From assembly GCA_023404495.1 (NCBI GenBank), contig JAEYBE010000026.1, positions 5,457-69,456 of the forward strand: a stretch of DNA of 64,000 bases. The letters run 5' to 3'. Under the pieces are notes generated by a model. That model was not told the DNA's origin. It saw only the letters and a program-made list of their open reading frames with translations, and searched no databases. Shown here one piece after another: positions 908-19,027 of the stretch. Position numbers and translations under genes: made by a program. Origin of the DNA: Actinomycetes bacterium. GTDB lineage: Bacteria > Actinomycetota > Thermoleophilia > Solirubrobacterales > JACPNS01. The stretch's first letter is position 1. Each line of letters opens with the position of its first letter.

Positions 908-971
908 CGGACGAGGATGGTAGGCGCAGCGCCGGAGGGCCGGCTCGCACCCCGTATCGTTCCCACCAGCA

Positions 972-1667
972 ATGACGCCAGATCAAGCCCAGCAGATCGT
1001 GATGAAGCCCCCCGCACCGCGCCACGGTGGCCCGCTGACGCTGCTGCGATTCATGATCAAGAATCGGCTTTTTCGCAGGCGCTACCTCGCGAGCTACGCG
1101 CGGATGTTCAACCACAAGGTGATCCACCGCCGCGCCTACGGCCGCAAGATCCACACCGACGGGCTCTGCTTCATCGGCAACAAGGTGAAGATCGAGGTCG
1201 GTCCCTTCGCACACGTGTTTTTGGACCGCTGGAGTTGGGTCGGCAACCGGACCAAGCTGCGCGCCCACGGCGGCTTCATTCGGATCGGCAGCAAGTCGGT
1301 GCTCGGCGAGGAGATCACGTTCTCTTGTTACGAAGAGATCTCGATCGGACGCGAGTGCGTGGTCGCCGACCGGGCGATGTTTATCGACTTCGACCACATC
1401 GTCGCCGACCCCGAGCAGGCGATCCGCAAGCAGGGCCTCTACAGCAAGCCGGTGCGCGTCGGCAACAACGTCTGGATCGGCTACGGGGCGTGCATCCTGC
1501 GCGGCGTGACGGTTGGCGACGGGGCGGTGATCGGCACGAACGCCGTCGTCACAAAGGACGTGCCGGCGAATGCGATCGTCGGCGGAGTGCCGGCGAAGGT
1601 GCTGCGGATGCGGGAGGAGCCGGAGCTGCTGACCTGGGAAGCCGATCCGCGGCCAGAAGGAATCTGA
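972..1667 (+). CDS. Hexapeptide-repeat (left-handed beta-helix) O-acetyltransferase
   Basis: 231-aa ORF. The C-terminal hexapeptide repeats VGNNVWIGYGACILRGVTVGDGAVIGTNAVVTKDVPANAIVGGVPAKV are typical of maltose/galactoside-type acetyltransferases. The start may be a downstream Met (1002 or 1053). Confidence 0.8.
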   Translation: MTPDQAQQIVMKPPAPRHGGPLTLLRFMIKNRLFRRRYLASYARMFNHKVIHRRAYGRKIHTDGLCFIGNKVKIEVGPFAHVFLDRWSWVGNRTKLRAHGGFIRIGSKSVLGEEITFSCYEEISIGRECVVADRAMFIDFDHIVADPEQAIRKQGLYSKPVRVGNNVWIGYGACILRGVTVGDGAVIGTNAVVTKDVPANAIVGGVPAKVLRMREEPELLTWEADPRPEGI

Positions 1668-1670
1668 GGA

Positions 1671-2858
1671 TCAGGCGCGCGTCGCGTGCGCGGACAACGC
1701 GTCCTCGTAGCGCCCGAGTGTCTGCCGCGCGATGTCCAGCCAGTCGAACGTGAGCACATGTTCTGACGCTTCCGCGATCAACCGATCGCGCAGCGCGTCG
1801 TCGGTCAGGACGTTGGAAGCCATCTCGGCGAGCTCGCCCGAATCGCGCGACGTGAAGCGCAAGCCGACCCGTTCGTTGGGCACCACTTCGCGCAGGCCGC
1901 CGACGTCCGCGACGATGCAGGGGCAGCCGCTGGCCATCGCCTCAAGCGCCACCAGTCCGAAGGGCTCGTAGATCGACGGCACGATCGTCAAATCTGCGAT
2001 CCGGTAGAGCGAGTGCAGCACGTCGTCGCCGATCCAGCCGACAAACGTGCCGTGCTGCATGAGTCCGAGCTCCTGCGCCTGGTCCTTGAGCTCCTGTTCA
2101 TGCGTACCCGAGCCGGCGATCAGGAAGCGCAGCTTGCCGACCTCCTCGATCATCTGCGGCAGGGCTTCCAGCGCGACCTGGAAGCCCTTTTCGTAAACGA
2201 GCCTGCCGACCAGCAGCACGAGCTTCTCGTCCGACGCGGCAAATGAAGCTCGCAGCTCGTCAAGGTCTGCGACCGGCTGCAGGTCGTGTGGGTCGATTCC
2301 GTTCGGGATCACGGCGACCGCGCTCTCTTCGATCGCGTAGATGTCGGCAATGTGTTCGCGCATGTACGACGAGCAGGCGATCACCACGTCGGCGCGGTTG
2401 ACAATCCACTTTTCGACGCCGTGAATGTGGCTCTGCGGGTGCTTGTCGACCCAGCCCTGGTGGCGGCCGTACTCAGTCGCGTGGATCGTCATCACCAGCG
2501 GGACGTCAAAGCGCCGCGCGAGGTGGTCGCCAGCCGTCGCCACCAGCCAGTCGTGGCCGTGGACGACGTCGAAGTCGTACTCGTCGGCGAGCGCCACGCC
2601 CGCCCCGAGCATGTCGGTGTTCATGTGCTCGATCCAGGTGACGAACTCTCCGAGGTCTCGCGGGCGCTCGGGCTCGCGGACGCGGTGCACATGTACGCCA
2701 TTGAGGACGCCTTCGTCCGGTGCCGACCCGTCGCCCCGCGTGAGCACGTGGACCTCCACGCCGAGCTCGACGAGGTTCTCGGAGAGCTTGCGCACGTGAC
2801 GCGCGAGTCCGCCTTCGATGAGCGGCGGATACTCCCAGGAGAGGATCAGAATTCGCAA
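1671..2858 (-). CDS. GT4-family (GT-B) alpha-glucosyltransferase, glycogen-synthase-like
   Basis: 395-aa ORF. The N-terminus MRILILSWEYPPLIEGGLARHV and the C-terminal SIYEPFGLVALEAMASGCPCI region are GT4 hallmarks. It is the last gene of a co-directional MT-GH57-GT4 string. Confidence 0.85.
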   Translation of the reverse strand: MRILILSWEYPPLIEGGLARHVRKLSENLVELGVEVHVLTRGDGSAPDEGVLNGVHVHRVREPERPRDLGEFVTWIEHMNTDMLGAGVALADEYDFDVVHGHDWLVATAGDHLARRFDVPLVMTIHATEYGRHQGWVDKHPQSHIHGVEKWIVNRADVVIACSSYMREHIADIYAIEESAVAVIPNGIDPHDLQPVADLDELRASFAASDEKLVLLVGRLVYEKGFQVALEALPQMIEEVGKLRFLIAGSGTHEQELKDQAQELGLMQHGTFVGWIGDDVLHSLYRIADLTIVPSIYEPFGLVALEAMASGCPCIVADVGGLREVVPNERVGLRFTSRDSGELAEMASNVLTDDALRDRLIAEASEHVLTFDWLDIARQTLGRYEDALSAHATRA

Positions 2859-2906
2859 ATCATGTACCGGTCGGGGGAAAACAGCCGGCAGGAGTTTGGC
2901 AGGCGA

Positions 2907-4280
2907 TCAGCCGTTGACCTGCGATTGGGCGCGCTCGAAGGCCGCCAGATGCTCGGCAAAGCGATGCGCGCCGTAGTCGCCGGTGCGTCCGCCGCTCTCC
3001 ATGAATGCCCAGTCGCTGGCTTGCAGAGCGAGCAGTTCGCGCTCCGCGCCGGCGGTGGCTTGGGAGCGCGCTGCTCTCTCGTCGAGCGCGAGTTCGGCGC
3101 GCCGCTGATTCCAGACCATGTCGGCAACGCGCGGCGAATCCCAGGTCTCGAGCGTCTTGTTCTTGCCCCAGCTCGAGCGCGCCAGATGCCGGTCCACAGG
3201 CTCCGCGTCGCGCGCTGCCGCGCCGAGCGTGACGAGCTCGATGCCGTAGTCGGCTGCGCGCTGCGTCACGGCCTCGAGCCACCACGGCCCTTCGTACCAC
3301 CAGTGGCCAAACAGCTCGGTATCGGCTGCGAAGACGCTCGTTCCGGGCCGCCCACGCTCGTTCGCAAACACCTCGAGCCGCGCAGCGAGCGCGCGCAAGA
3401 AGGCGTCGGCGTGCGCCTCGGCCTGGGCGTGGGCCGCCGCGGGATTCCAGCCGCGGTCGTCGTTGTCGTATGGCAACAGATCGTGGATCGTGCGCGCGAA
3501 GGTGGATCGATAGGCCCCTGCCGAGGGGTAGCCGTCCTCGCGCCACACCTGGGCGACCGTGTGCCAGTCGATCGGCAGCGCGAGCGGTCCGGCCGGCGTC
3601 GCAATCGGCTCGAGGTTCTCGAGCGCCGCCTCGCCAAGCGCGGCGGACTGGTCGACGCAGAAATACTCGACGCCGTTACGGGCAAGCGCCACATCGAGCC
3701 CACGATCCCAAGCGCACTCAGGCAGCCAGATGCCCGATGCAGCTCCGAGACGCCGGGCGTGCGACCGCATGCCCGTGGCAAGCTGGAGGTCGAGCCCATA
3801 GTCGGTCGCAAGCAGCGGAAGCACCGGGTGTGTCGCCGGACCGGCGAGCAGCTCGGCACCGCCTGCGGCGAGACTCGCGAACACCCGATTGAGGTCGCGC
3901 GCGAACTCACCTTCAAATCGGTCGATCGCTGAGCGGTAGTCGAGGAGCTGCGGCTCAAGTGCATCGGTCAGCTCTGGTCGGCCGACCTTCGGGAACGCCG
4001 CCATGTCCTCGCCGAAGACGTACTCGCGCGAATCGTTGACCCAGGCTACGAAGCGGTCTCCCGGTGCGCCCTGCATCTCCTCAAGCTGGTCGGCCAGAAC
4101 CGGCGTCACGCCGATCGTCACCGGGCGGCCACGCACGGCGTCGTGCACGCGCAGGTACGAACCGGCGATGACCTCCCAGAGCCACTGCTCGCCAAACGGC
4201 CACACGCCGTGACCAAGGACATACGGCATATGCGTGTGCAGGACGATCGCCAGGCGGCCGATCGTCGGGCGCGGGTTCAT
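2907..4280 (-). CDS. GH57-family glycoside hydrolase / alpha-glucan branching-enzyme-like protein (DUF1957 type)
   Basis: ORF track 2907..4448 trimmed to ATG 4280 (MNPRPTIGRLAIVLHTHMPYVLGHGVWPFGEQWLWE...), which lies 5 nt after the upstream stop. The N-terminal HTHMPY motif and the length fit GH57. Confidence 0.8.
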   Translation of the reverse strand: MNPRPTIGRLAIVLHTHMPYVLGHGVWPFGEQWLWEVIAGSYLRVHDAVRGRPVTIGVTPVLADQLEEMQGAPGDRFVAWVNDSREYVFGEDMAAFPKVGRPELTDALEPQLLDYRSAIDRFEGEFARDLNRVFASLAAGGAELLAGPATHPVLPLLATDYGLDLQLATGMRSHARRLGAASGIWLPECAWDRGLDVALARNGVEYFCVDQSAALGEAALENLEPIATPAGPLALPIDWHTVAQVWREDGYPSAGAYRSTFARTIHDLLPYDNDDRGWNPAAAHAQAEAHADAFLRALAARLEVFANERGRPGTSVFAADTELFGHWWYEGPWWLEAVTQRAADYGIELVTLGAAARDAEPVDRHLARSSWGKNKTLETWDSPRVADMVWNQRRAELALDERAARSQATAGAERELLALQASDWAFMESGGRTGDYGAHRFAEHLAAFERAQSQVNG

Positions 4281-4285
4281 CGGCT

Positions 4286-5086
4286 CTAGGCCCGCGGGCC
4301 GCCGCAGACGGCGACGAAGTCGAGCGCCTTGGTCAGCGACTCGTCGGTCTCGCCGCGCCGCAGCGCGAAATCTCTGGCGCTGATCGACGGCGTGAACCGG
4401 TCGTAGAACAACTTGCTGATGCGCAGACCTTTGTGCAGATCGTCCCACCGGGCGTGCCTGAGCGCCAGCTCATGCAGGCGCAGCTTGCGCGCATGAAAGA
4501 CGCCGTAGATCGTCACCTCGGTGAAGACCTCCTGACAGAGCTCGCGAAACTCGCTCGGGCGGTACTCCTTGACATGCCACGGATTTCCCGACTTCTCTGC
4601 CCCCTCTGGCGCCAGTGTGAGCAGATTTGGAGTCGAGACGAAGACCTGGCCGCCGGGCGTCAGCAGCGACGCGAAGTGCCGCAGCACGGCCGCCGGGTCC
4701 TGGACGTGCTCGATCGTCTGCAGGAAGCTGACGACGTCGACCTTCTCTGCCGGCCGGTAAGTCTCGATCAGGTCGCGGACGATAGAGATCTTCTCGCTGC
4801 CGTACTTCGCTTTGGCGTGCTCGTAGGCCTCGGGGTTTGCGTCCACGCCGATCACGCTGGCGGCCCGGCGTGCAAGCACCTCGGTGCCGTAGCCCTCTCC
4901 GCAGGCCATGTCGACCACGCTCTTGCCGGCCACGCGCTCGGCGATCCATTCGTAGACCACGAGGTGGCGGCGGTACCAGTAGTTCTCCTCGGGCAGATCT
5001 GGCAGTGTTCGCTCGCCGGTCAGCTCCAGCGGCGGCACGCCGTCGGGCTGGTTTAGCTGAATGAACTTTTCGGCGACTTCGGGCAT
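4286..5086 (-). CDS. Class I SAM-dependent methyltransferase
   Basis: ORF track 4286..5269 trimmed to ATG 5086 (MPEVAEKFIQL...). SAM motif I is VVDMACGEGYG, followed by VIGVDAN. The longer version would overlap the divergent gene. Confidence 0.75.
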   Translation of the reverse strand: MPEVAEKFIQLNQPDGVPPLELTGERTLPDLPEENYWYRRHLVVYEWIAERVAGKSVVDMACGEGYGTEVLARRAASVIGVDANPEAYEHAKAKYGSEKISIVRDLIETYRPAEKVDVVSFLQTIEHVQDPAAVLRHFASLLTPGGQVFVSTPNLLTLAPEGAEKSGNPWHVKEYRPSEFRELCQEVFTEVTIYGVFHARKLRLHELALRHARWDDLHKGLRISKLFYDRFTPSISARDFALRRGETDESLTKALDFVAVCGGPRA

Positions 5087-5095
5087 CGGCGCCGC

Positions 5096-5103
5096 ACTAT
5101 AGT
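5096..5103. promoter_or_regulatory. Palindromic -10-like element ACTATAGT in a 27-bp divergent intergenic gap (candidate bidirectional promoter core)
   Basis: TATAGT reads on both strands. It lies 10 nt upstream of ATG 5114 (+) and 9 nt upstream of ATG 5086 (-). No room remains for a conventional leader or SD. Confidence 0.3.
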
Positions 5104-5113
5104 TGCGCCCCCT

Positions 5114-6049
5114 ATGGCCCTCACCGCACAAGAGATCAAAGACTTCAACATCTCCTACCACGACGCCGCCGCCGAGGAGTACGACGCCAAGTGGGGCATC
5201 GACTACGGCGAGATCGGACAGTCGCAGGTACGAATCAAGACCGCCAAGGTGCTCGGTAAAGACGCGCACTTTGAGCGGGCGCTGGAGATCGGCTCAGGCA
5301 CCGGCTACCTCTCACTGAACATGATGCTCGCGGGGATGATCGACGAGGTCGTCTGCACCGACATCTCAGAGGGCATGCTCAGCGTCGTCGAGAACTCCGC
5401 CGAACGCCTCGGCCTTGGCGACCGGGTGACGACCGTTCACACCGAGGCCGAGGGCCTGCCGTTCCCCGATGAGTCGTTTGACCTTGTGTTCGGCCACGCG
5501 ATCATCCACCACCTACCCGACCTGCAGGAATCGTTCAACGAGTTCTTCCGCGTTTTGAAGCCCGGCGGCACGGTGTTCTTCGCCGGTGAGCCCTCCGAGC
5601 GTGGCGACAAGATCGCCCGCCTGCCAAAACAGGTCGGCCACCGCCTCTCCCCGGTCTGGAGAAAAGCGCTCGGCGTCGGTCAGCTCTCGAAGCAGGAGGC
5701 CGCGAAGGTCGCCGCCGGCGAGCGCTCGAAGGAGCACATCGAGGGCCACGCCGTCGAGCACCTGGTCGACATCCACGCCTTCCGTCCCGGTGATCTTTCG
5801 CGCTACGCCAAGAATGCTGGCTTTGGCGACGTCCGGGTGATCGGCGAAGAACTCTCGGCCAATTGGTTCGGCTGGTTCAACCGCGCGCTCGAAGCGGATG
5901 GCATCCCCGAGGACATCCCCTGGGGCTGGCGCCAGTACGCCTACCGCGGCTACCTCGGCTTCCAGTGGTTTGACCGCACCGCGCTGGAGGGCCGCCTGCC
6001 GGCGAGCATCTTCTACAACCTGATGATCGGGGCGGTCAAGCCCGAGTAG
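5114..6049 (+). CDS. Class I SAM-dependent methyltransferase
   Basis: 311-aa ORF with SAM motif I ALEIGSGTGYL, acidic loop CTDISEGM, and FDLVFGHAIIHHL. Confidence 0.8.
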   Translation: MALTAQEIKDFNISYHDAAAEEYDAKWGIDYGEIGQSQVRIKTAKVLGKDAHFERALEIGSGTGYLSLNMMLAGMIDEVVCTDISEGMLSVVENSAERLGLGDRVTTVHTEAEGLPFPDESFDLVFGHAIIHHLPDLQESFNEFFRVLKPGGTVFFAGEPSERGDKIARLPKQVGHRLSPVWRKALGVGQLSKQEAAKVAAGERSKEHIEGHAVEHLVDIHAFRPGDLSRYAKNAGFGDVRVIGEELSANWFGWFNRALEADGIPEDIPWGWRQYAYRGYLGFQWFDRTALEGRLPASIFYNLMIGAVKPE

Positions 6050-9300: not shown

Positions 9301-10836
9301 TCAGGCCAGTACGAACGCGCCCCCGCGCCGCGGATCGCCGCCGCCGGCGAGCTCACCACCGGGATCGCGCCCGACGGCCTGGCAGCCGCCGAAGAAGAGA
9401 TTGGCCCGGTCCCATTGAGCCACCGGCGTGCCGGCGAGCTGGATCGCCTCAAGAGCGAGTTCATCGATCCCGGGCTCTGCCTGAACCATCCCGTCCTCGA
9501 AGTGGACGCGCGGCGCACGCACCGCCTGGTCGATCTGCATACCGTGATCGATCACGTTGACGATCGTCTGCAGAACCGCCGAGCGAATGCGATTGGAGCC
9601 AGCCGAGCCGAGCACGATGCGCGGCGCGCCATCCTCGAGCACGACAGTCGGCGCCATCATCGAGGTCACGCGCTCACCGCCGCGATTGTTCTCTGCACCG
9701 AGCGGATTGAGATCCATCTCGCCGAGCATGTTGTTGAGCGAGATGCCGGTGCCGGGCACGATCACGCCGCTGCACGATCCGTTTGAACAGGTGCAAGAGA
9801 CCGCAAGCCCGTCGGCGTCAAGCACTGACACGTGGGTGGTCGATCCGAGCATGCTGGTCGGCAGCGCGCCGCCCCCGCTGATTCTGTCGTGCTCGCCGGT
9901 CAGCCACGAGCGTCCGGAGTCGAGGAACTCGTCCCAGAATCCCTCGCGCGCAAGACCCTCGACGAACTCACGGTCGCGTCCGCGGTTGGCGAAATCCATC
10001 GCATCGACCAGCTCTCGCGCCGACACGCGCTCGCCCTGGGCGAGGTGCACGAGGCTGTCGGCGATCAGCAGACCGCCAGACGACGGCGGCGGGTTCGTGA
10101 TCACGCGGCGACCGCGGTACTCGGTGGTGCCGGGGGTGCGGTCGATCACTTCGTAGGCCGCAAGATCTTCCGGGGTGATCGTTCCGCCGTTCTCGCAGAC
10201 GAACTCAGCCACCTTCTGCGCGACCTCGCCGCGATAGAACGGCTCCGGGCCGTCCTGTGCGAGCCGGTCGATCGCATCGCCGAACTCGGGAAGCAGCAGG
10301 AGCTCGCCGATCTGCGGCATGTTGCCGTCCGGCGCGTAGACTGCGCGCCCCTCAGGCCAGGCGGTGAGGATCGGCGTGAGGATCCGGTAGAGGAAGGCGT
10401 GGACCTCGCTCGTCGGCACACCCTTGCGGCTGAGCTCGATCGCGGGCTTTGCAAGCTCGGTCATCGGCATTGTGCCGAAGCGATCGAGCGCGCTCCAGAG
10501 ACCTGCCGCCGTGCCATAGACGCCGCAGGTGGCGGCGCCGCCGTTGAATTGCTGCAGCGCGCCGTCGAAATCGACCATGAACTCGACCTGTTCGGCCTCG
10601 GGCGCAACGCTCGCCGGCGAGCTGACGAAGAAGTCGAGCAGGTGGGACTCGCCCGCAGGCGTGTGGATCAGCATGAAGCCGCCGGCGCCGATGCCGGTCA
10701 GCGGCGATTCGGCGATGAATGAGGTGAGCACCGCGGCAATTGCGGCGTCGACGGCGTTGCCGCCTTCTCGCAAAGCGCGTGCGCCTGCCTCCGCGGTCAA
10801 TGTGTGACCGGCAGCGATAGCGCCCCGCGAAGTCAT
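9301..10836 (-). CDS. ggt: Gamma-glutamyltransferase family protein
   Basis: 511-aa ORF. GGT-type N-terminus (AIAAGHTLTAEAGARALREGGNAVDAAIA), GAGGFML, and the autoprocessing Thr in GSTTHVSVLD. I see no signal peptide. Confidence 0.85.
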   Translation of the reverse strand: MTSRGAIAAGHTLTAEAGARALREGGNAVDAAIAAVLTSFIAESPLTGIGAGGFMLIHTPAGESHLLDFFVSSPASVAPEAEQVEFMVDFDGALQQFNGGAATCGVYGTAAGLWSALDRFGTMPMTELAKPAIELSRKGVPTSEVHAFLYRILTPILTAWPEGRAVYAPDGNMPQIGELLLLPEFGDAIDRLAQDGPEPFYRGEVAQKVAEFVCENGGTITPEDLAAYEVIDRTPGTTEYRGRRVITNPPPSSGGLLIADSLVHLAQGERVSARELVDAMDFANRGRDREFVEGLAREGFWDEFLDSGRSWLTGEHDRISGGGALPTSMLGSTTHVSVLDADGLAVSCTCSNGSCSGVIVPGTGISLNNMLGEMDLNPLGAENNRGGERVTSMMAPTVVLEDGAPRIVLGSAGSNRIRSAVLQTIVNVIDHGMQIDQAVRAPRVHFEDGMVQAEPGIDELALEAIQLAGTPVAQWDRANLFFGGCQAVGRDPGGELAGGGDPRRGGAFVLA

Positions 10837-11258
10837 GCGAGGTCGAACCCGGGTGCCTCGACCGGGATGCCGATCGAGCTTGCGGATTCGATAAGCCGGC
10901 GGTCGTAGCTGACCAGCGAAGCCGCCCCAACCATCGTCGCGGTCGCGCAGTGGATGGCGTCGAGAGTGCGCAGAGATTCGCCACCGATTCGCCTTGCGAC
11001 CGCGATCGTCTCATACGAGATCGGGTATCCGGACACCCCTGCGAGTGCGTCGGACTCGGCGTCGCCCGGATACTCCACGTCCCCGACGGCGAGGCGCCGG
11101 CGCAGTGTGCGAGACACCTCAACCCACCCCAGCGTCGAAGTCACCAGTTCGTTCGCGCCAGTCGCAAGTTCAGCCAACCGCCGGCGCAGGGGCTCGGACT
11201 CGGGCTCGCTGAGAACCCGCTTCACGATCGCGCTCGAATCGAGATACACGATCCGCAC
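10833..11258 (-). CDS. vapC: PIN-domain ribonuclease toxin VapC
   Basis: 141-aa ORF with PIN acidic positions (IVYLDSSAIV, TLDAIH, SYDRRL). Its stop overlaps the ggt start as ATGA. Confidence 0.8.
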   Translation of the reverse strand: MRIVYLDSSAIVKRVLSEPESEPLRRRLAELATGANELVTSTLGWVEVSRTLRRRLAVGDVEYPGDAESDALAGVSGYPISYETIAVARRIGGESLRTLDAIHCATATMVGAASLVSYDRRLIESASSIGIPVEAPGFDLA

Positions 11259-11265
11259 GAGCCGG

Positions 11266-11526
11266 TCAGATCCGATCGTCGCGATCGAGCAGATCCAGCG
11301 AAGTCATTCCCTCGGGCATCGGAATGAGCTGTTCTTCCGGCACAGTCTCGAACGGCCGCTCAGGAGGAATCAGGCTGTCACGCCAATGCTCGCTGCGCTT
11401 CTCCTGCGGAGTCAGATACGCATCGACGGCAGCACGGATCACATCTTGCTGAGAACGACCGCTGCGCTCGGCCTCGGCCTTCACCGCCGCAGCCGCCTGC
11501 TGGCTGAGTCTCAGATTCGTGGCCAT
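11266..11526 (-). CDS. vapB: Ribbon-helix-helix antitoxin (VapB/CopG-like)
   Basis: ORF track 11266..11553 trimmed to ATG 11526 (MATNLRLSQQAAAAVKAEAERSGRSQQDVIRAAVDAYL). It ends 7 nt before vapC. Confidence 0.65.
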   Translation of the reverse strand: MATNLRLSQQAAAAVKAEAERSGRSQQDVIRAAVDAYLTPQEKRSEHWRDSLIPPERPFETVPEEQLIPMPEGMTSLDLLDRDDRI

Positions 11527-11563
11527 CCGGCAATGGTACCGATTTGGTACCAATCCTGCGGCG

Positions 11564-13102
11564 TCAGCCCCTGGGAACGAATTCCGGCACGTCCATGTCG
11601 GACAACGCCATCGATCCCGAGTCGCCCGAGCGTGAGACGCGTGGCTCGCGGTCGGCGCGAGTGGCCTCGATCAGCGCGCTCTGGCGCACGCCGCCCGCGA
11701 CCTGCTGGCCGCCGCCGCGCACCGTCTTCTGACGATGGTCGCCGTAGCGGGTCGCGATCACCGTCACCCACACCTGGTCGGTGAGGTTCGGGTCGACCAT
11801 CGCGCCGAAGATGATGTTGGCCTCCGGGTGCGCAGCCTCCTGGACGATCTTGGCGGCCTCGTTGACCTCCCAGAGGGAGAGATCCGGACCGCCGGTGATC
11901 GAAAGCAGAATCGCGCGCGCGCCCTCGATGCTGGTCTCAAGCAGCGGTGAGCTGACAGCCTGGTTGGCCGCCTCGACGCTTCGCACATCGGGGCTGCCGG
12001 CGCCCATACCGATGCCCAGCAGCGCCTGTCCGGCGTCGGACATGATCGTGCGCACGTCTGCGAAGTCAATGTTGATCAGGCCCGCGAGGGTGACGAGGTC
12101 GGAGATGCCCTGCACGCCCTGGCGCAAGACGTCGTCGGCGACGCCGAAGGCCTCGACCATCGAAGTGTTCTTGTCGAGGATCGCCAGCAGGCGGTCGTTC
12201 GGGACGACGATCAGCGTGTCGACCTCGTCGGCCAGCGCCTCGACGCCGAGCTGCGCGGCGCCCTTGCGGCGTGTGCCCTCGAATCCGAACGGCGTGGTCA
12301 CGATGCCGACGGTCAGCGCGTCGACTTCACGCGCGATCCGCGCAACGATCGGGGCCGCGCCCGTACCGGTGCCACCGCCGGCGCCGGCGGTGATGAAGAT
12401 CATGTCGCTGCCCTTGAGCACGCGCTTGATTGCGTCGTAGTCGGCGACCGCGGCGCGCGCGCCCTGCTCGGGGTCTGCGCCGGCACCGAGCCCACGTGTG
12501 ATGTCTGCGCCGATGTGCAGCTTGATGTCAGCCGCGCTGCCCTGGAGCGACTGCATGTCGGTGTTGATCGCGACGAACTCGACACCGGTAACACCAGCCT
12601 CGATCATCCTGTCAACCGCGTTGACGCCAGCCCCGCCGACGCCGACGACGCGCAGCTTGGGCGTGACAACGCCCTGGGGAGTTGCACTGAAAGCGGCTGC
12701 GCCGGGGTCGGGGATATTGCGCCCGTAGTGGGCGGCCGGAGGCTCGTCGGTGCTTCCGTCGATCACCTCTGCCGAGCCACGAGCCATGTCAAAGACCTTC
12801 TTCAGGCGCTCTTTGGCCGGCACGTCGCTGGCGACGGTGTTTGCCTCGCGCTCGGCCGCAGGTGTGCGAGGAGCCGGCGCTTCGAACGCCGGCTCGGGCT
12901 CTGAGGGCTGAGATTCTTGGATCGGCTGGGCCTGCGCGGCGGGCTCGGGCTCGGTCGCAGGGGCCGCTGCTTCGGCCTCGGGTGCCGCCGGCTGCTCCGC
13001 CTCGGGCTCGGTCTTGCGGAAGAGCGCGGCGAGTGGTCCTTCGCGCATGCTGGCCCGCTTGTTCACTACAGGCTTGCCCTGCTCTTCATTGTCACGTGCC
13101 AT
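11564..13102 (-). CDS. ftsZ: Cell-division GTPase FtsZ with an unusual ~148-aa N-terminal extension
   Basis: [20 protein letters not shown] signature [16 protein letters not shown]7 loop NIDFADV, and a conserved C-terminal peptide [11 protein letters not shown]. Start taken at ATG 13102 ([10 protein letters not shown]...); the ORF-track start 13162 lies inside parA. GC3 stays high through the extension. Confidence 0.9.
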
Positions 13103-13877
13103 GGGCGATGACCTCCTGGGCCAGATCTCTGTAGGACTGCGCGGCGACGCCGTCGGGGTCATATTTGAGGACAGACATTCCCTTCACGGGAGCCTCGGCG
13201 AAACGGATCGTCTTCTTGATGCGAGAAGCGAACACGCGGTCTCCGAAGTTCTCCTCCAGCAGCTCGATCGCTTCCTTGGCGTGAAGCGTGCGCGAATCGA
13301 CGAGGGTCGGAAGGATTCCCTCGATGTCGACATCCGGATTCAGGTTCTCGCGGATCATCTCCAAGGTGTTCTGCAGCTGGATGAGGCCTCTCATCGAGAG
13401 GTACTCACACTGTACGGGCACAATAACTTTGTCAGCGGCGGTGAGAGCGTTGATCGTCAGCAGCCCGAGGCTCGGCGGGGTGTCGATGCAGATGAAGTCG
13501 TACTGGTCGCGCACCTCATCGAGCGCCTTGTCGAGCGCGCGCTCGCGGCCGATCTGCGTCGAAAGCGCCATCTCCGCGCCGGCGAGGTCGATCGAGGCTA
13601 CGGCGACGTCGATCTCCCGGTGGACGATGATCTGGCTGATCGGCACCTTGTTGACGAGCACGTCGTAGATCGACGTCTCGACCGTGTCCGGGTCCACGCC
13701 CTGCGACATCGTCAGGTTGCCCTGCGGGTCCATGTCGATGCAGAGGACCTTGTGGCCCTCTTCTGCGAACGCCGCAGACAGGTTGAGGGTCGTCGTCGTC
13801 TTGGCAACGCCGCCCTTCTGGTTGGCGAATGCGATGACCTTGGCCTTCTTGGTCTTCTTCTGCGGGGTGTCAGTCAT
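13092..13877 (-). CDS. ParA/Soj-family deviant Walker-A ATPase (orphan, no parB nearby)
   Basis: ORF track 13092..13946 trimmed to ATG 13877 ([37 protein letters not shown]...). Contains KGGxx[11 protein letters not shown] and [10 protein letters not shown]. The stop overlaps the ftsZ ATG by 11 nt. Confidence 0.85.
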
Positions 13878-14057
13878 GGTGCGGCGATGCTCCTGGTGCG
13901 GAGGGCGTTGAAAAGTCGGATTGGAGACCCGGGAGGGGGTCTCCATGGGGGCCTTTTCGTAGCGAGCAGGTGTATTCCTGCACGAACGTCATGCTGGATT
14001 TCCGCTCTGAGAGCGGGATCGCAGGGTGATGATCTGATTCGGAGTAGCCTGCGCCGC

Positions 14058-15038
14058 ATGCCAGGACCGGCAACGCCAGCCCCAGCCAAGGATCTCTTCG
14101 AGCATCGATTGCTCTTCGTGACCGGCAAGGGCGGTGTCGGCAAGACCACGGTCGCTGCGGCGCTCGGGCTCGCCGCAGCGCGCCACGGACTGCGCACGAT
14201 CGTGTGCGAGCTCGACGCGCGTGAGCGCCTGCACAGCCTCTTCAACGTCTCAACGCGGGGATTCGAGGAGGTCGAGCTTGTGCCCGATCTCCACGCAATT
14301 GCGATCGATCCGCAGCACGCGATCGAGGAGTACCTGCTGCTGCAGATCAAGGTTCGGCCGGTCTACGACATGCTCTTCAAGAACCGCGTCTTCGACTACT
14401 TCGCAGCCGCCACGCCCGGGCTCGCGGAGCTGGTCACGATCGGCAAAGTCTGGGAGCTCGCCCAACCGGACCGCCTGAAGAAGAAGTCAGAGCCCTACGA
14501 CCTGGTGATCGTCGACGCACCGGCGACCGGCCACGCGCTGGCGATGCTCGAGGCACCGGAGACGTTCAAGAAGATCGCGCGCGTAGGCCCGATCCACCGT
14601 CAGGCGGGATACATCCAGTCGTTCCTGCACGATCCGGCGACCACCGCGATCATCGCCGTGGCGACAGCCGAAGAGATGCCAGTCAACGAGACCCTTGACC
14701 TGCGCGCCGAGCTTCGAGAACGTGTCGGTCTCGACATCTCACTAGCCGTGGTCAACGCGCTCGAGCCGGAGTTCTTCTCGGCCAAAGAGATCGCGCAGCT
14801 CAAGCAGCTCGACCACCTTGCCCCGCTTGACGCCGCGATCCTGCAGTCCGAGCGCCAGGTTCGCCAGGCAGGCCAGCACGCGCGGCTCGCCAAGGGGCTC
14901 GAACGGCCACTGGTTGATCTGCCGTTCCTCTACGAGAAGGCAATCGGCCGCGCCGAACTCAACACGCTGGCGGACAAGCTGACCGAGGACCTCGCAGAGC
15001 AGTTCGCCGGCATCGCGAAGCAGAAGGACGAGAGCTGA
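14058..15038 (+). CDS. ArsA/Get3-family P-loop ATPase (first of a pair)
   Basis: Only the C-terminal 326 codons of ORF 13014..15038 are credible (MPGPATPAPAKDLFEHRLLFVTGKGGVGKTTVAAALG...VIVDAPATGHAL). The upstream part is antisense to parA. Confidence 0.8.
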   Translation: MPGPATPAPAKDLFEHRLLFVTGKGGVGKTTVAAALGLAAARHGLRTIVCELDARERLHSLFNVSTRGFEEVELVPDLHAIAIDPQHAIEEYLLLQIKVRPVYDMLFKNRVFDYFAAATPGLAELVTIGKVWELAQPDRLKKKSEPYDLVIVDAPATGHALAMLEAPETFKKIARVGPIHRQAGYIQSFLHDPATTAIIAVATAEEMPVNETLDLRAELRERVGLDISLAVVNALEPEFFSAKEIAQLKQLDHLAPLDAAILQSERQVRQAGQHARLAKGLERPLVDLPFLYEKAIGRAELNTLADKLTEDLAEQFAGIAKQKDES

Positions 15039-16126
15039 TGGATCTCGCCTCGCAACTTCAGAATGTCGAGGTGGTCGTGTGCGCCGGGTCGGGCGGAGTC
15101 GGCAAGACGACCACGAGCGCCTCGATCGCGATCGGCATGGCGGCCCGTGGCTACAAAGTCGCCGTCCTCACGATCGACCCCGCAAAACGCCTGGCCGACT
15201 CGCTCGGCTTGTCGGAGCTTGGCACCGAGTTGCGCCAGGTAGACGCGAAACTCTTCAATCCGCAAGGCCTCGAACTGACCGGTGAACTCCACGCTGCGAT
15301 GCTCGACCCCAAGCGCACCTTCGACGAGCTGATCCTGCGCTACGCGCCAGACCGCGAGACCTACGAGAACATTCTCTCCAACCGGATCTACCAGGAGCTT
15401 TCAAACGCAATCGCCGGCTCCCAGGAGTACATGGCGATGGAGAAGTTGCTCGAGCTACATGAGAGCGGCGAGTTCGATCTGCTTGTGCTCGACACACCGC
15501 CCTCGCGCAACGCACTTGAGTTCCTCGACGCGCCAAAGCGCCTCGCGCGCTTCGTCGACGGGAGGGCACTGCGGGTCTTCCTGGCCCCCGGGCGCTTCGG
15601 CCTGAGGATCGCCGGGCGCGGCGGCAGCATGCTGTTCTCAGCCCTGACCAAGATCACCGGCGTCGACCTGCTCAACGACCTCTCCGAGTTCTTTGCCAAC
15701 TTCGCCGATATGGCATCCGGGTTCTCTGAGCGCGCCCAACGGGTGGACGCGCTGCTGCGCAGCGACCGATCAACCTTTCTCTTGATCTGCTCGCCCGAAA
15801 ACGAGCCGGTCGATGAGGCGATCTTCTTCCGCCGGCTGCTCAAGGAGCAGAAGCTCCCGTTCTGCGGCGCGATCGTCAACAAGGTGCGGCCGGATTACTA
15901 CCGCGCGAAGAAACAGCTACCGGATTCGATCGACCCCGAGCTCGCAGCGCGCATCATGGAGAACTACGACCGCCAACGCCTGCTCGGCGCGCGCGACGCC
16001 GAAAACATCGCGCGGCTTGAGAAGTCACTCTCGACCAACAACCTGATCGAAGTCCCGCTCTTCTCCGACGACATCCACGGCGTCGACGGGCTGGTGCACA
16101 TGGTGCGTCAGGTGTTTGGCAACTGA
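15038..16126 (+). CDS. ArsA/Get3-family P-loop ATPase (second of a pair)
   Basis: 362-aa ORF with VVVCAGSGGVGKTTTSASIA, LTIDPAKRL and LVLDTPPSRNALEFL. The start overlaps the upstream stop (TGATG). Confidence 0.8.
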   Translation: MDLASQLQNVEVVVCAGSGGVGKTTTSASIAIGMAARGYKVAVLTIDPAKRLADSLGLSELGTELRQVDAKLFNPQGLELTGELHAAMLDPKRTFDELILRYAPDRETYENILSNRIYQELSNAIAGSQEYMAMEKLLELHESGEFDLLVLDTPPSRNALEFLDAPKRLARFVDGRALRVFLAPGRFGLRIAGRGGSMLFSALTKITGVDLLNDLSEFFANFADMASGFSERAQRVDALLRSDRSTFLLICSPENEPVDEAIFFRRLLKEQKLPFCGAIVNKVRPDYYRAKKQLPDSIDPELAARIMENYDRQRLLGARDAENIARLEKSLSTNNLIEVPLFSDDIHGVDGLVHMVRQVFGN

Positions 16127-16620
16127 GCTTCCAGCGCGTCGCACCAGCGCCGGACCGTCTCGTGTTGGGCGCTCCATGCGACCCAGACGTTTTCCGCCCA
16201 GCGCCGCGCCAGCGCTACGTGCTCCTCAAAAGTCTCCCCGGCCAGCACATCCTGCGCGGTCATCGTGCCGATCGGTGTCGTCGGTTCAAACCAGGGAATG
16301 TGCAGTCCGCCGTGGGTCGAGCGCTCCATCACGGCGGTCGCGTAACGCTGCGGCGCATTGCGCTCAAGCATCATGCAGAGGCGGATCAGGTGCACGCCGA
16401 CCGACTGGCGTGCGCGCGGCACGTTCTCGCCGGGATGCTGGGCGGCGTAGGCGTCGACAATGAACTTGTGCTCCTCCGGCATCCCGAATTCGCCGTAGTC
16501 CTTCGCCAGCACGCGACCATAGACCGCCCAGCAGGCTGCGCTCGCACCGATGTACTCGTGCGTCGGACCGTCGTACTCGGGCAGGACGATTCCGCAGCCT
16601 GGGCAGGCGCTCTCAGACAC
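16108..16620 (-). CDS. Conserved hypothetical protein with an N-terminal CPGCG zinc-ribbon-like motif (DUF5946-like; family name from memory)
   Basis: 170-aa ORF with a GTG start (MSESACPGCGIVLPEYDGPTHEYIGASAACWAVYGRVLAKDYGE...VDAYAAQHPG). It overlaps the upstream gene's stop by 8 nt. Confidence 0.5.
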   Translation of the reverse strand: MSESACPGCGIVLPEYDGPTHEYIGASAACWAVYGRVLAKDYGEFGMPEEHKFIVDAYAAQHPGENVPRARQSVGVHLIRLCMMLERNAPQRYATAVMERSTHGGLHIPWFEPTTPIGTMTAQDVLAGETFEEHVALARRWAENVWVAWSAQHETVRRWCDALEAQLPNT

Positions 16621-19027
16621 CGCCGCAGAAGTCGTCCGGGTCGTCCGGATCGCTTTCGATGACCGGACGAAACTCGATCGTCGCGGGGCCGATGCGGTGG
16701 TTGCGATCGGCTTCGCTCGTGTGATTCTCGGGCTCCACCGCTTCGACCGGCTCGGGAAACTTTGCGACTACGAGGTCCGGAACAGGGCGAAGCGGTTGCG
16801 GCTCAACGGCCTCGGGCGCCTCGGCCGGCTCTGCGCGCTGCTCTGGTTCAGGAGCATCCTCGCGGCGCAGGAACTGACGACTCCAGGCAAGCTGGGCGGC
16901 CTCTTCGGCGGAGGTCTCGGCGCCGGGCACGTCGTACTCGACGGTCATCTGCGGGTCGAGCGGGATCAGCGGCCGATCCGCCGCATCCGGGCGGACGATC
17001 CGCAGTGCCGCGGCCTCAGCTTGAGAATCCTTGGCCGATTCGACAGCAGACAGGTGCGAACGAACGTCGCGCGCGATCGGCGTACTCGCCGCCTCGTCGC
17101 TCGGCCGCTCGGGGTGGAGAAAGTTCTCGTCCATGATCTCGCGGAAGTTCTCGCGCTGCTCGTCGGCTCCGACCTCATCGTCGCTGCGGCGCACAGCCGG
17201 GCCGCGGCCGGTCGGGACTCCGAACTCTGGGATCGGGAACGCGGGATCGACTTCGTCGACAGCTGTCGCAGGCGGGGTGATCTGTTCAACGACGGGAGGT
17301 GCCGCCGGCACCGCCGGCGCGTCGGCGACCGGCGAGAAGTCGAACGTGAAGCCGCTCTCCCCATGGGCGTCGCTCAGCGCGGGTCGTTCGGCGACCGGCC
17401 GGCGCTCAGGAGCGGCGTCCCACTCGGGCGCCTCGAGCGCGGGCGGCTCGAGTTCGGACTCAGGCTGGACGGCGGACTCAGGCTCGGGGCTGACCCGCGG
17501 CGCCGGCGCGAGGTCCTCTGCCGGGTGGAGCGTCCAGACGTTGTCATCTGGCTCTGCGGGTTCGGCGAGCGCCTCGGCGTCCTCACGGGTGTCGATCGCC
17601 TTGATCTCGGCGGTGTCGTCAAAAACCGAGTCGAACTCCACGGTCTGCGTCGGGTCGACCGGTGCCGGTGCGCCGGGGTCTGGCACCGGCTCCAGGTAGA
17701 CGGGGTCCTCGGCGACGATCTCGTCGCCGGACGGTTCGCCATCGGCCGCCAGGATCTCGTCGGCGAGGCTCTTCAGGTCGGTCGAGAGATAGCCACACAC
17801 GAGGTCATGGAGCAGCGCGCGCAGGTGACGCTCAGCGCCGGCGATCACATCCAGCGGTGCGAACTTCTCCAAGCGCTTGCGATCGGCGCGCCCGACGCTG
17901 CCGTTCACAGCCAGGCGTTCGAGTGCAAAGGCCGCCTCGATCTGGTCGCGCACGTCCTGGCGCTCGTGGTCCTGCGCGCACAGCGCGGAGATCCGGGCCG
18001 GAAGCGCAGCCTTGCCACGATCGTCTTCGGCTTCAAGCAGCGCGCGCAGCGCCAGCAAAAAGTCAGTCAAGCCGTCGGCCGGCACGGTGCGCTCGAGACC
18101 GGTCTCGAATCGCTTGAGCGACCAGGCGATCCGCGTGCGGCGCTCAACCCGGCGCACGGCGTTGACGAATTGACGCAGTTCTTCCTCATCGCTCGGGCGC
18201 AGTTGCCAGGCGTCTTCGCGTGAGCGGCCCGAGAATGGCATCGAGACCTGGTGCCAAGAGCCCGCGATATCGGCCTGGGCGGTCATGCCCAGCGCAACGC
18301 TGCCCGGGCGAAACAGCCGCAGAGCGGTCAGCAGGGCGCGCGCGGACAGGCGCACTGCAGGCATCGGCGTGGGAGCATCGGACGGCGCCGTGACCGAAAT
18401 CGAGCAGTAGCTGTCGGCGCCGGCCGAGCTGTCGGAGAAGCGCTCGGCGCAGGTCGGGTCAAGCTCTTCGGCCGCGATCATCTCGACGCCCGCGCCGAGG
18501 TTGATCGAGCCCTCGCTCAAAGCGACGCCATGCACCGGGATGAAGACCGTGGTCACGAGCCGTTCGGCCAGAGCGACTGACTCAAGCTCGACATAGGCGC
18601 GCTCGAAGCGCTCATCCCAATACTCAAAGCGCTCGGCGCTCTCCCAGACCGCGGAGAGAAACGCCAACACGCCTAGCCGCGCGTGCGTCAGCTCTCCGAC
18701 GTCGAGCACCGGCTCGTTGCGCACGCGCAAGTAGGCGATCACGCCACGCGTTCGTGCGAGGTTCTGGGCGGCGTTCTCAAACGTCGCGAGCCGGCGAAGC
18801 TGGTCTGCGTGCGAGGCGACGAACTCGGCGGTGAGCGGCCGGTAGGCGAACATCGTGACCGGCCCGCGTGCACCCGGGGCCTCGCCACCGGGTCCAGACT
18901 CCCCGACCTCAAACGGAATCTCGGCGCCGCTCGCAAGCAGGTCTTCGAGCAGCCGGGAAGCGTCCTCTGTGAGCACGCGCAGGGAGTCATGGAGCATTCG
19001 ATCGCGCATGCAGGACGGTTTCTGCAC
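16613..19027 (-). CDS. Hypothetical protein: ~440-aa structured N-terminal domain plus ~360-aa acidic Pro/Glu/Ala-rich disordered tail
   Basis: 804-aa ORF with consistent GC3 bias. I recognised no motif. The start may be Met7 or Met11 (19009/18997). Confidence 0.6.
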   Translation of the reverse strand: MQKPSCMRDRMLHDSLRVLTEDASRLLEDLLASGAEIPFEVGESGPGGEAPGARGPVTMFAYRPLTAEFVASHADQLRRLATFENAAQNLARTRGVIAYLRVRNEPVLDVGELTHARLGVLAFLSAVWESAERFEYWDERFERAYVELESVALAERLVTTVFIPVHGVALSEGSINLGAGVEMIAAEELDPTCAERFSDSSAGADSYCSISVTAPSDAPTPMPAVRLSARALLTALRLFRPGSVALGMTAQADIAGSWHQVSMPFSGRSREDAWQLRPSDEEELRQFVNAVRRVERRTRIAWSLKRFETGLERTVPADGLTDFLLALRALLEAEDDRGKAALPARISALCAQDHERQDVRDQIEAAFALERLAVNGSVGRADRKRLEKFAPLDVIAGAERHLRALLHDLVCGYLSTDLKSLADEILAADGEPSGDEIVAEDPVYLEPVPDPGAPAPVDPTQTVEFDSVFDDTAEIKAIDTREDAEALAEPAEPDDNVWTLHPAEDLAPAPRVSPEPESAVQPESELEPPALEAPEWDAAPERRPVAERPALSDAHGESGFTFDFSPVADAPAVPAAPPVVEQITPPATAVDEVDPAFPIPEFGVPTGRGPAVRRSDDEVGADEQRENFREIMDENFLHPERPSDEAASTPIARDVRSHLSAVESAKDSQAEAAALRIVRPDAADRPLIPLDPQMTVEYDVPGAETSAEEAAQLAWSRQFLRREDAPEPEQRAEPAEAPEAVEPQPLRPVPDLVVAKFPEPVEAVEPENHTSEADRNHRIGPATIEFRPVIESDPDDPDDFCGGV

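Follow-up and report, generated by a model that had tools for sequence, protein, structure and literature searches.

A conserved N-terminal peptide on the FtsZ of Thermoleophilia is a candidate docking motif for a co-encoded ParA-like ATPase

The cell-division protein FtsZ of an Actinomycetes bacterium from the class Thermoleophilia (order Solirubrobacterales) carries, ahead of its GTPase core, a long N-terminal extension that begins with a short conserved peptide, and its gene lies directly behind a gene for a ParA/Soj-type ATPase. We study this arrangement in 64,000 nucleotides of the bacterium's genome (GenBank assembly GCA_023404495.1, contig JAEYBE010000026.1, positions 5,457 to 69,456 of the forward strand), a stretch that we call the window and whose own numbering we use throughout. 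The extension is a translated N-terminal module that spans the class Thermoleophilia, a group of soil actinobacteria. Judging from the sequences, we give about an even chance to the reading that its peptide is a docking or activating motif for the co-encoded ATPase, and the Z ring may be placed directly by that ATPase. An earlier note on the same DNA, made from its letters alone, had proposed a relation of this kind, and several of its claims are taken up below.

The features needed for the argument are the following, where AF2 denotes AlphaFold2 and pLDDT its predicted local distance difference test, a per-residue confidence.

11564..13102, minus strand: ftsZ, 512 residues including the N-terminal extension; open reading frame (ORF) from the ATG at 13102 to the stop at 11564-11566, recognised by Pfam, TIGR00065 and the AF2 core.
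12656..13102, minus strand: N-terminal extension, residues 1-149, predicted from AF2 pLDDT to be disordered except for two short helices.
13010..13060, minus strand: conserved peptide K15-T31 (17 residues), candidate ParA-docking or ParA-activating motif, recognised by invariant columns and free codons.
12818..13009, minus strand: hypervariable Pro/Glu/Ala-rich linker, residues 32-95, recognised by entropy, composition and pLDDT below 50.
12791..12817, minus strand: second conserved island, A-K-E-R-L-K-K-V-F, residues 96-104, with R99, L100 and F104 invariant; predicted helix.
12719-12727, minus strand: Y-G-R island, residues 126-128, recognised by alignment conservation.
11567..11599, minus strand: canonical FtsZ C-terminal peptide, with P506, E507, F508 and P510 invariant in 79 homologues.
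13112..13117, minus strand: AGGAGG, a Shine-Dalgarno-like hexamer within the parA-like coding sequence, read from the sequence, 9 nucleotides upstream of the ftsZ ATG.
13092..13877, minus strand: ParA/Soj-type ATPase, 261 residues from the ATG at 13877 (alternative ATG at 13946), recognised by Pfam, matches in the PDB and residue mapping.

The Thermoleophilia FtsZ is a genuine FtsZ, with both its GTPase core and its C-terminal peptide intact. In the window protein the Tubulin/FtsZ GTPase domain occupies residues 150-309 (Pfam, 8.7e-45) and the FtsZ_C domain residues 358-451 (8.3e-30). With the NCBIfam model TIGR00065 (ftsZ), whose cutoff is 295, the protein reaches 393.9 bits, the GGGTGTG loop of the GTPase is present, and the AF2 model of the core has a pLDDT above 90. 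The C-terminus of the protein fits the partner-binding pattern D-[IV]-P-x-F-[LIM], and among the orthologues the C-termini read DVPEF(I/L)P or (E/L)PPSFLR.

In the window protein 149 residues precede the first strand of the core, and in most of the 150 best FtsZ cluster representatives the core begins between residues 10 and 15. Both figures agree with the earlier note, which had placed an extension of about 148 residues at 12659-13102 and had taken a start near residue 10 as typical of FtsZ. An N-terminal stretch of over 40 residues, or the peptide motif, is found in 37 of the same 150 representatives, several of which resemble eukaryotic or organellar proteins or miscalled starts, and thus the length of the extension alone is not unique. 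Three representatives of 744-840 residues (P0241, P0245 and P0246), with two matched stretches each, could be tandem FtsZ proteins, other fusions or assembly artefacts, and are unrelated to the Thermoleophilia family.

It might be supposed that the extension is an artefact of annotation, and that the true start is an internal codon such as Met106 (12785-12787). Some public annotations of the family are of this form: those of P0022, P0026, P0031 and P0039 start at internal codons and yield proteins of 377-404 residues. Annotations with internal starts remove the conserved N-terminal peptide from the protein databases. The strongest observations to the contrary come from the pattern of substitutions. 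We scanned a degenerate DNA pattern of the peptide over one genome per species, which gave at least 120 loci. All listed matches are ftsZ N-termini and none falls on any other protein; among the matches listed they derive from Solirubrobacterales, Thermoleophilaceae, Gaiellales and Miltoncostaeaceae. Across 122 unique orthologous DNAs, the amino acids of the block R-A-S-M-R-E-G-P-L-x-x-L-F-R-x-T are fixed while the codons vary freely. For example, Gly22 is encoded by GGC in 52 of these DNAs, by GGG in 34, by GGA in 18 and by GGT in 18. The columns that the pattern itself had left free (R16, R29 and T31) are invariant or nearly so. Fixed amino acids with free synonymous change imply purifying selection at the level of the protein, and hence that the extension is translated.

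The start codons behave in the same way. In an alignment of 79 full-length homologues, at 60-91% overall identity, Met1 is kept in 97% of the sequences. Met106 is present in the window but is not conserved, the commonest residue of its column being Ser (38%), for which reason we rejected an internal start at this position; moreover, the purifying selection upstream of Met106 effectively excludes it as the only start. Translation from Met106 or later was among the findings that the earlier note had named as refuting its proposal. The AGGAGG hexamer stands 9 nucleotides ahead of the ATG at 13102, and the frame of the extension contains no stop, as had been noted earlier, against four and three in the other two frames. 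The fraction of codons ending in G or C (GC3) is 0.75 in the extension and 0.88 in the core, a reduction due to the use of Ala, Pro and Glu codons; the extension was said before to have coding-like GC3, and its value lies below what that description implied. We assign the artefact explanation a next to negligible probability.

A search for homologues returns the FtsZ proteins of Thermoleophilia metagenome-assembled genomes (MAGs), at 57-90% identity. These proteins share a single layout, consisting of Met1, 2-20 residues, the peptide motif, a hypervariable Pro/Glu/Ala stretch and the core, with a handful N-terminally shortened. The residues R16, A17, S18, M19, R20, E21, G22, P23, L24, L27, F28 and T31 are invariant in the 79 homologues, and the basic residues of the peptide are K15, R16, R20, R29 and K30. 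The position given previously for the peptide (13013-13060) is confirmed, and the alignment of orthologues that had been suggested as a check finds both the extension and the block R-x-G-x-L-A-A-L-F conserved, in the 79 homologues as in the 122 DNAs.

The remainder of the extension behaves quite differently from the peptide. The columns of the linker have an entropy of 2-3 bits and many gaps, and residues 32-95 comprise 18 Ala, 14 Pro and 13 Glu out of 64. Among orthologues this acidic linker is 55-190 residues long, and the length of the whole extension varies from 55 to 182 residues. AF2, run with the 79-sequence alignment, gives 10-residue blocks a mean pLDDT of 38-57 up to residue 140 and of 72 at residues 141-150, so that composition and model both bear out the Pro/Glu/Ala-rich disordered linker described before. 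A Pfam scan of the extension returns only noise. The model contains two short isolated helices, at residues 23-29 (PLAALFR) and 96-108, each with a pLDDT of about 56. The second overlaps the second island, whose consensus is P-K-E-R-L-x-x-V-F around the invariant residues R99, L100 and F104. This island and the Y-G-R island are present in sequences of Solirubrobacterales/Thermoleophilales type and absent from those of Gaiellales type. The second island looks like a degenerate version of the motif at the N-terminus ([R/E]-L-x-x-Φ-F), and from its sequence it is possible that it forms a second docking site.

The presence of two related L-x-x-Φ-F motifs within one extension would also suit a role in self-assembly, in which the peptide and the ERLxxVF island regulate FtsZ through contact with its own core, in cis or in trans. 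A precedent exists in Anabaena, whose FtsZ is reported to need its conserved N-terminal peptide (residues 2-51) for normal polymerisation (PMC6175996). The AF2 model, however, shows no confident docking of helix 23-29 or helix 96-108 on the core, which at a pLDDT of about 56 is weak evidence, and self-regulation leaves both the ParA operon and the exit of ftsZ from the dcw (division and cell wall) cluster unexplained. We consider this explanation rather improbable.

A further explanation would make the peptide an amphipathic membrane-targeting helix that anchors FtsZ itself. The peptide has basic residues beside the hydrophobic M19, L24, L27 and F28, it is predicted to form a short helix, and it lies at the extreme N-terminus; Noc, a relative of ParB, has an N-terminal amphipathic membrane helix. 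But the predicted helix is only about 7 residues long and follows a Pro, and the small or polar residues A17, S18, E21, G22, P23 and T31 are invariant, whereas membrane helices tolerate conservative substitution. Invariant positions of this kind point to a specific protein interface rather than a membrane helix, and we hold membrane anchoring to be very improbable.

The gene that precedes ftsZ offers a candidate for such an interface. In the window the TGA of the parA-like gene (13092-13094) overlaps the ftsZ start, and the two genes are taken to be translationally coupled. Among the loci listed, 121 of 123 have a Soj-type ParA-like gene immediately upstream of ftsZ, and the two remaining loci have no upstream DNA. 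For the 110 loci whose upstream DNA extends over at least 900 nucleotides, a heuristic scan finds that the upstream Walker-A ORF runs 4-29 nucleotides past the ftsZ start in about 95; the others seem to be frameshifted assemblies or cases in which the heuristic failed. The earlier statement that a ParA-like ATPase is encoded just upstream thus extends well beyond the window, with overlapping stops in most of the loci scored. The overlap of stop and start is found in deeply diverged loci as well. The divergent peptide variants SSMREGPLSELFRPT, on an extension of 60 residues, and HSMRDGPLAALFKAT, on one of 77 residues, both occur in FtsZ proteins whose loci have an overlapping ParA-like gene upstream. 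A directly upstream ParA-like gene with an overlapping stop fits a partner relationship with FtsZ. Furthermore, in all 81 paired loci the ParA-like protein is more conserved than the FtsZ core, the median identities being 77.6% and 66.1% respectively.

The typical, though not defining, context of an actinobacterial ftsZ is ftsQ-ftsZ-yfiH-ylmE-sepF, and the ftsZ of the window does not have it. The nearest FtsZ representatives without an extension lie in murG-murC-ftsQ-ftsZ-yfiH-ylmE-sepF-yggT-divIVA clusters without a ParA gene. We find no evidence of a paralogue in the form of a second, dcw-linked Thermoleophilia FtsZ: the closest non-extended proteins, P0247 and P0250, are ordinary FtsZ proteins in classical dcw clusters. 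From the comparison of neighbourhoods, the extension, the peptide, the exit from the dcw cluster and the linkage to ParA go together, and a single ancestral rearrangement is probably the source of all loci. A scan for promoters and terminators over 11200-14300 yields nothing informative. A tblastn search with Thermus and Deinococcus ParB, covering the window together with related loci amounting to about 1 Mb, finds no ParB near the locus, and a motif scan of the window finds none.

The ATPase itself matches AAA_31 (8e-64), CbiA and, in part, MipZ (4.5e-13) in Pfam. No curated NCBIfam equivalog for ParA or MinD scores above its cutoff, the best being NF041546 (ParA_partition) with 119.9 bits against 180. 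Its matches in the PDB are as follows.

4PFS / 5IF9: M. smegmatis orphan ParA, 1e-60.
8RAY: M. xanthus ParA, 2e-58.
1WCV / 2BEK: T. thermophilus Soj, 6e-50 for 1WCV and about 1e-49 for the two entries together.
6IUB: Soj ("SpoOJ regulator"), 4e-47.
1G3Q: MinD, 1e-15.

The site at which M. xanthus ParA receives the N-terminal peptide of ParB has been described (Schnabel et al. 2025, PMC12462528). It consists of a hydrophobic pocket (V116, L150, L152, L155, L187 and L192) and a pocket for the basic residue, or arginine (Y81, E82, D110 and E117), and the key residues on the side of ParB are L11, R13, L15, L18 and I19 (PMC12462528). We aligned the window ATPase to 8RAY and refer to its residues by the numbering of M. 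xanthus ParA, with the following result.

Hydrophobic pocket V116/L150/L152/L155/L187/L192: M/L/L/I/M/L in the window ATPase.
Basic-residue pocket Y81/E82/D110/E117: Y/D/D/A in the window ATPase.
Catalytic residues D58, D60 and N64: kept in the window ATPase.
Residue R238, for non-specific DNA binding: kept in the window ATPase.

The same features recur in 105 ftsZ-linked orthologues. Leu is found at 150, 152 and 192 in 103 of the 105, Met at 187 in 102 and Ala at 117 in 102, so that Glu117, which is invariant in chromosomal ParAs, is replaced by Ala in the ftsZ-linked family. The Walker A motif NQKGGVAKT, a Gly-to-Ala variant, is invariant in all 105, and the position equivalent to R238 holds R or K; the change R238E abolishes non-specific DNA binding in M. 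xanthus ParA. No MinD-like membrane helix is seen in the sequence at the C-terminus of the ATPase. On these grounds the enzyme looks like a competent DNA-binding ATPase of the Soj type, whose pocket for a partner peptide is preserved but remodelled.

We compared the FtsZ peptide with T. thermophilus Spo0J (PDB 1VZ0) together with 74 distinct N-termini of Deinococcota ParB, which read SKKPSGLGRGLEALLPKT. The best ungapped register places KKPSGLGRGLEALLPKT over the FtsZ peptide. In that register the flanks match, first as K[KR]xS and then as LxALΦxKT, and L24, A26, L27 and F28 take the positions of ParB L15, A17, L18 and I19 on the short helix. The core GLG[RK]G does not match: the FtsZ peptide has M-R-E-G-P where the ParB consensus LG[RK]GLxALL has its G-L-G-[RK]-G half, and of the residues just upstream the hydrophobic M19 is displaced by one position from ParB L11 and the basic R20 by two from R13. 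The peptide is also placed as in ParB, at the extreme N-terminus, where it starts 5-15 residues behind Met1 in all orthologues, before a disordered linker, and encoded directly downstream of a ParA-like gene. Of the likeness to the ParB N-terminus asserted in the earlier note, then, the L-x-A-L-Φ-x-K-T half aligns, the G-L-G-[RK]-G-L core is absent, and the statistics are not significant. We rejected the peptide as a member of the ParB motif family, the similarity being weak and confined to the C-terminal half. The note had further given the Arg/Lys of ParB as the residue that stimulates the ATPase. A catalytic action in the manner of an arginine finger is contradicted by Schnabel et al. 2025, according to whom the Arg/Lys of ParB is not an arginine finger and binds the H4/H6/H7 helix region of ParA (PMC12462528).

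Several results weigh against the view that the peptide docks on or activates the co-encoded ATPase. A position-specific scoring matrix built from the 74 ParB N-termini gives the peptide negative log-odds, with p against shuffles ranging from 0.004 to 0.26 according to the orthologue. The alignment of the peptide to ParB by hhalign covers 9 columns (P = 0.064, probability 0.9%), and pairwise BLOSUM scores against ParB have p = 0.07-0.4 against shuffles, compared with p = 0.006-0.03 against the N-terminus of ScpA. A hidden Markov model of the peptide, searched against the PDB sequences, finds no ParB and no match at E ≤ 10, and the single peptide likewise finds no match at E ≤ 10. The GLG[RK]GL core is missing, with the basic residue displaced by two positions. 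The N-terminus of ScpA matches the peptide at least as well as ParB does: the EGPLxxL core (FtsZ residues 21-26, 13025-13042, minus strand) is identical to the ScpA N-terminus FEGPLDLLL (PDB 3ZGX, 3W6J and 4I98). Covariation between the peptide and the ParA pocket, over 104 pairs, is dominated by clade structure, and the pocket columns are not enriched, so that it is uninformative. The gene downstream of 4PFS, the closest solved relative, encodes a PP2C-like product without a similar peptide. Finally, the perfect co-occurrence of peptide and ATPase gene is close to a single evolutionary event, and nearby genes of unrelated function are conserved as well: ggt was detected in 85 of the 123 loci and bagB in 60, many of the loci being incomplete. 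Because such neighbours (ggt, bagAB) are syntenic, synteny alone is weak evidence.

Since ScpA matches the peptide at least as well as ParB, a resemblance over so short a motif cannot identify either the partner or the origin of the peptide. As regards origin, the sequence makes a fusion with the 5' end of an scpA-like gene conceivable. As regards the partner, the peptide might dock another protein altogether (a membrane anchor, a SepF-like protein, a kinase or phosphatase, or something related to SMC/ScpAB), the ParA-like gene being merely co-expressed with ftsZ. The EGPLxxL core, which scores better against ScpA than against ParB, would be accounted for in this way, as would the synteny of unrelated genes such as ggt; the invariant S18, within K-R-A-S, and T31 could be phosphosites. 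Mere co-expression sits poorly, however, with the stop/start overlap in most of the scored loci, the deeply diverged ones included, with a ParA-like protein that is more conserved than FtsZ, and with the conservation of its peptide pocket; moreover, the C-terminal peptide that recruits the known partners of FtsZ is still there. We regard another partner as unlikely, though deserving of serious weight.

Let us return, then, to the reading that the peptide docks on the co-encoded ATPase. The ATP-bound dimers of the ParA-like protein would probably sit on the nucleoid, since the DNA-binding arginine is kept and no membrane helix is seen. The FtsZ peptide would dock on such a dimer and probably stimulate its ATPase, with M19 and R20 standing in for ParB L11 and R13 in a basic-residue pocket remodelled by the change of Glu117 to Ala. 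The polymers of FtsZ would present many tethered peptides side by side, and hence act as a multivalent cargo, which would bind ParA dimers, trigger their release and become positioned relative to the nucleoid, as a ParB complex or a PomXY cluster does. In such a two-protein system for positioning the Z ring, FtsZ would be both the cargo and the activator. The binding of ParB to ParA requires two peptides brought together (PMC12462528), and an FtsZ polymer would supply that arrangement.

The same binding could, on the other hand, have the opposite consequence. The ATPase may be an inhibitor, whose DNA-bound dimers capture the N-terminal tails of FtsZ and block or sequester its polymers over the nucleoid or near the poles, giving nucleoid occlusion of a MipZ-like or MinCD-like kind rather than the positioning of a cargo. 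All the evidence for binding (the linkage, the conserved peptide and the kept pocket) serves this possibility equally, as do the partial match to MipZ in Pfam (4.5e-13) and the retention of the R238 equivalent as R or K. Sequence holds nothing that separates inhibition from positioning. MipZ, moreover, acts on the core of FtsZ and needs ParB, and tblastn finds no linked ParB gene. In favour of inhibition, deletion or over-expression of the actinobacterial orphan ParAs PldP and Rv1708/MSMEG_3743 produces minicells or filaments (PMC3989709; PMC10482377). The outcome of docking would be either positive placement, as by PomZ, or local inhibition, as by MipZ or Min; a purely inhibitory ATPase seems to us an unlikely but substantial alternative.

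The fullest form of the positioning idea we advance only tentatively. It holds that Thermoleophilia may use a minimal two-protein Z-ring machine, in which FtsZ would be the cargo and the activator of a nucleoid-bound ATPase. Polymerisation would pair the peptides, much as the CTP-driven closure of the ParB clamp does, so that only polymers would engage ParA, and no Min, Noc, MipZ-ParB or PomXY adaptors would be called for. The module may stem from the 5' end of a parB-like or scpA-like gene fused to ftsZ.

In full-text literature searches on FtsZ with Thermoleophilia, Solirubrobacter, Gaiella and related genera, we found no description of an arrangement of ftsZ with a ParA-like gene and an N-terminal peptide. 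A ParA/MinD ATPase whose partner acts through an N-terminal peptide is of a known kind; what would be new, if the sequences are read correctly, is that the partner is FtsZ itself. The choice of the division site in actinobacteria is a long-standing gap. To our knowledge, actinobacteria lack both Min and Noc, and we know of no divisome partner for the orphan ParAs PldP and Rv1708. A motif of 17 residues on FtsZ, together with a defined pocket on the co-encoded ATPase, yields a hypothesis that can be tested with peptides, namely that a ParA gradient is coupled directly to the Z ring. If confirmed, no simpler ParA-based cargo system would be known, since the cargo would carry its own activator, and the rule that activators work through an N-terminal peptide would extend to FtsZ.

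The surroundings of the two genes contain the following further features.

14001-15035 and 15038-16126, plus strand: two adjacent ATPases of the ArsA/Get3 type, divergent from parA-ftsZ, matching NCBIfam BagA/BagB below cutoff.
10833-11258 and 11266-11553, minus strand: a PIN-domain toxin and ribbon-helix-helix antitoxin pair, between ftsZ and ggt.
9301-10836: the gamma-glutamyltranspeptidase gene (ggt), beyond the toxin-antitoxin pair from ftsZ.
16613-19027, minus strand: an ORF of 804 residues near the locus, with long acidic stretches rich in Pro, Glu and Ala.

In three long contigs and the pattern loci listed, the gene order is bagB-bagA (divergent), parA-like, ftsZ, ggt. The NCBIfam BagA/BagB families correspond to M. 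tuberculosis Rv3679/Rv3680. One or both bag genes adjoin parA-ftsZ in about half of the related loci, and they are missing from loci of the Gaiellales type. Since ggt stands close behind ftsZ or abuts it in the related loci inspected, the toxin-antitoxin pair looks like a local insertion in the window. A complete ggt-ftsZ-parA-bagA-bagB locus of Thermoleophilia type also occurs at positions 58-5950 of a contig (L009, CAMCUD010000008.1) in a MAG titled 'Bifidobacterium breve'; its ParA is 83% identical to the window protein, and the contig is probably mis-binned.

How, then, does the arrangement compare with known systems? The N-terminal motif of ParB likewise occupies the extreme N-terminus, is followed by an unstructured region, and belongs to a gene immediately downstream of a Soj-type ATPase. 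Both peptides are basic and aliphatic (LEALLPKT in ParB, LAALFRKT in FtsZ), and the ATPase retains residues of the pocket. The carrier here, however, is FtsZ, whereas ParB is a CTP-dependent DNA clamp, and parS is absent; M-R-E-G-P replaces G-L-G-[RK]-G, the basic residue is shifted by two positions, and the similarity is not significant. From the chromosomal ParAs the window ATPase differs by its Ala in place of the invariant Glu117 and by its Walker A sequence KGGVAKT.

The orphan ParAs of actinobacteria provide a further comparison. PldP of C. glutamicum and Rv1708/MSMEG_3743 influence the placement of the division site, and Rv1708 binds ParB as well as ScpA, the latter being encoded by its downstream gene (PMC3989709; PMC10482377). 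Like the window ATPase, these proteins belong to the same phylum, are Soj-like and have no adjacent ParB, and 4PFS, the best match in the PDB, shares the sequence KGGVAKT. We identified the locus of 4PFS as that of an Rv3213c-type orphan, with the order whiB ... gpm-like, parA, PP2C-like, DEAD-box helicase; a peptide like that of FtsZ was not found in the PP2C-like product of the gene downstream of this parA. None of the orphans of the PldP, Rv1708 or Rv3213c type is linked to ftsZ, and their relation to the window ATPase is one of likeness, with orthology not established. As for FtsZ, that of heterocyst-forming cyanobacteria (Anabaena) also carries a conserved N-terminal extension peculiar to its lineage, for which a role in division has been demonstrated (PMC6175996). 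The peptide there is reported to act on polymerisation, and the abstract mentions no linkage to ParA (PMC6175996); the two extensions are likened by description only.

Two systems join a ParA-like ATPase to the Z ring. The ParA-like ATPase MipZ of Caulobacter crescentus acts on FtsZ directly, and the window ATPase has its partial match to the MipZ family. MipZ depends on ParB and inhibits the core of FtsZ. We know of no report that it is encoded with ftsZ or recognises an N-terminal peptide of FtsZ. In M. xanthus, the PomXYZ system uses a ParA-type ATPase, PomZ, to place the Z ring. PomX consists of a positively charged, conserved N-terminal peptide, an unstructured region rich in Ala and Pro, and a filament-forming domain (PMC7993993), which is the layout of FtsZ with its extension. 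The sequences of the two peptides are unrelated, and the lineage here is Actinomycetota. Unlike in PomXYZ, the filament-forming domain would in our case be FtsZ itself, and the adaptors PomX and PomY would not be needed.

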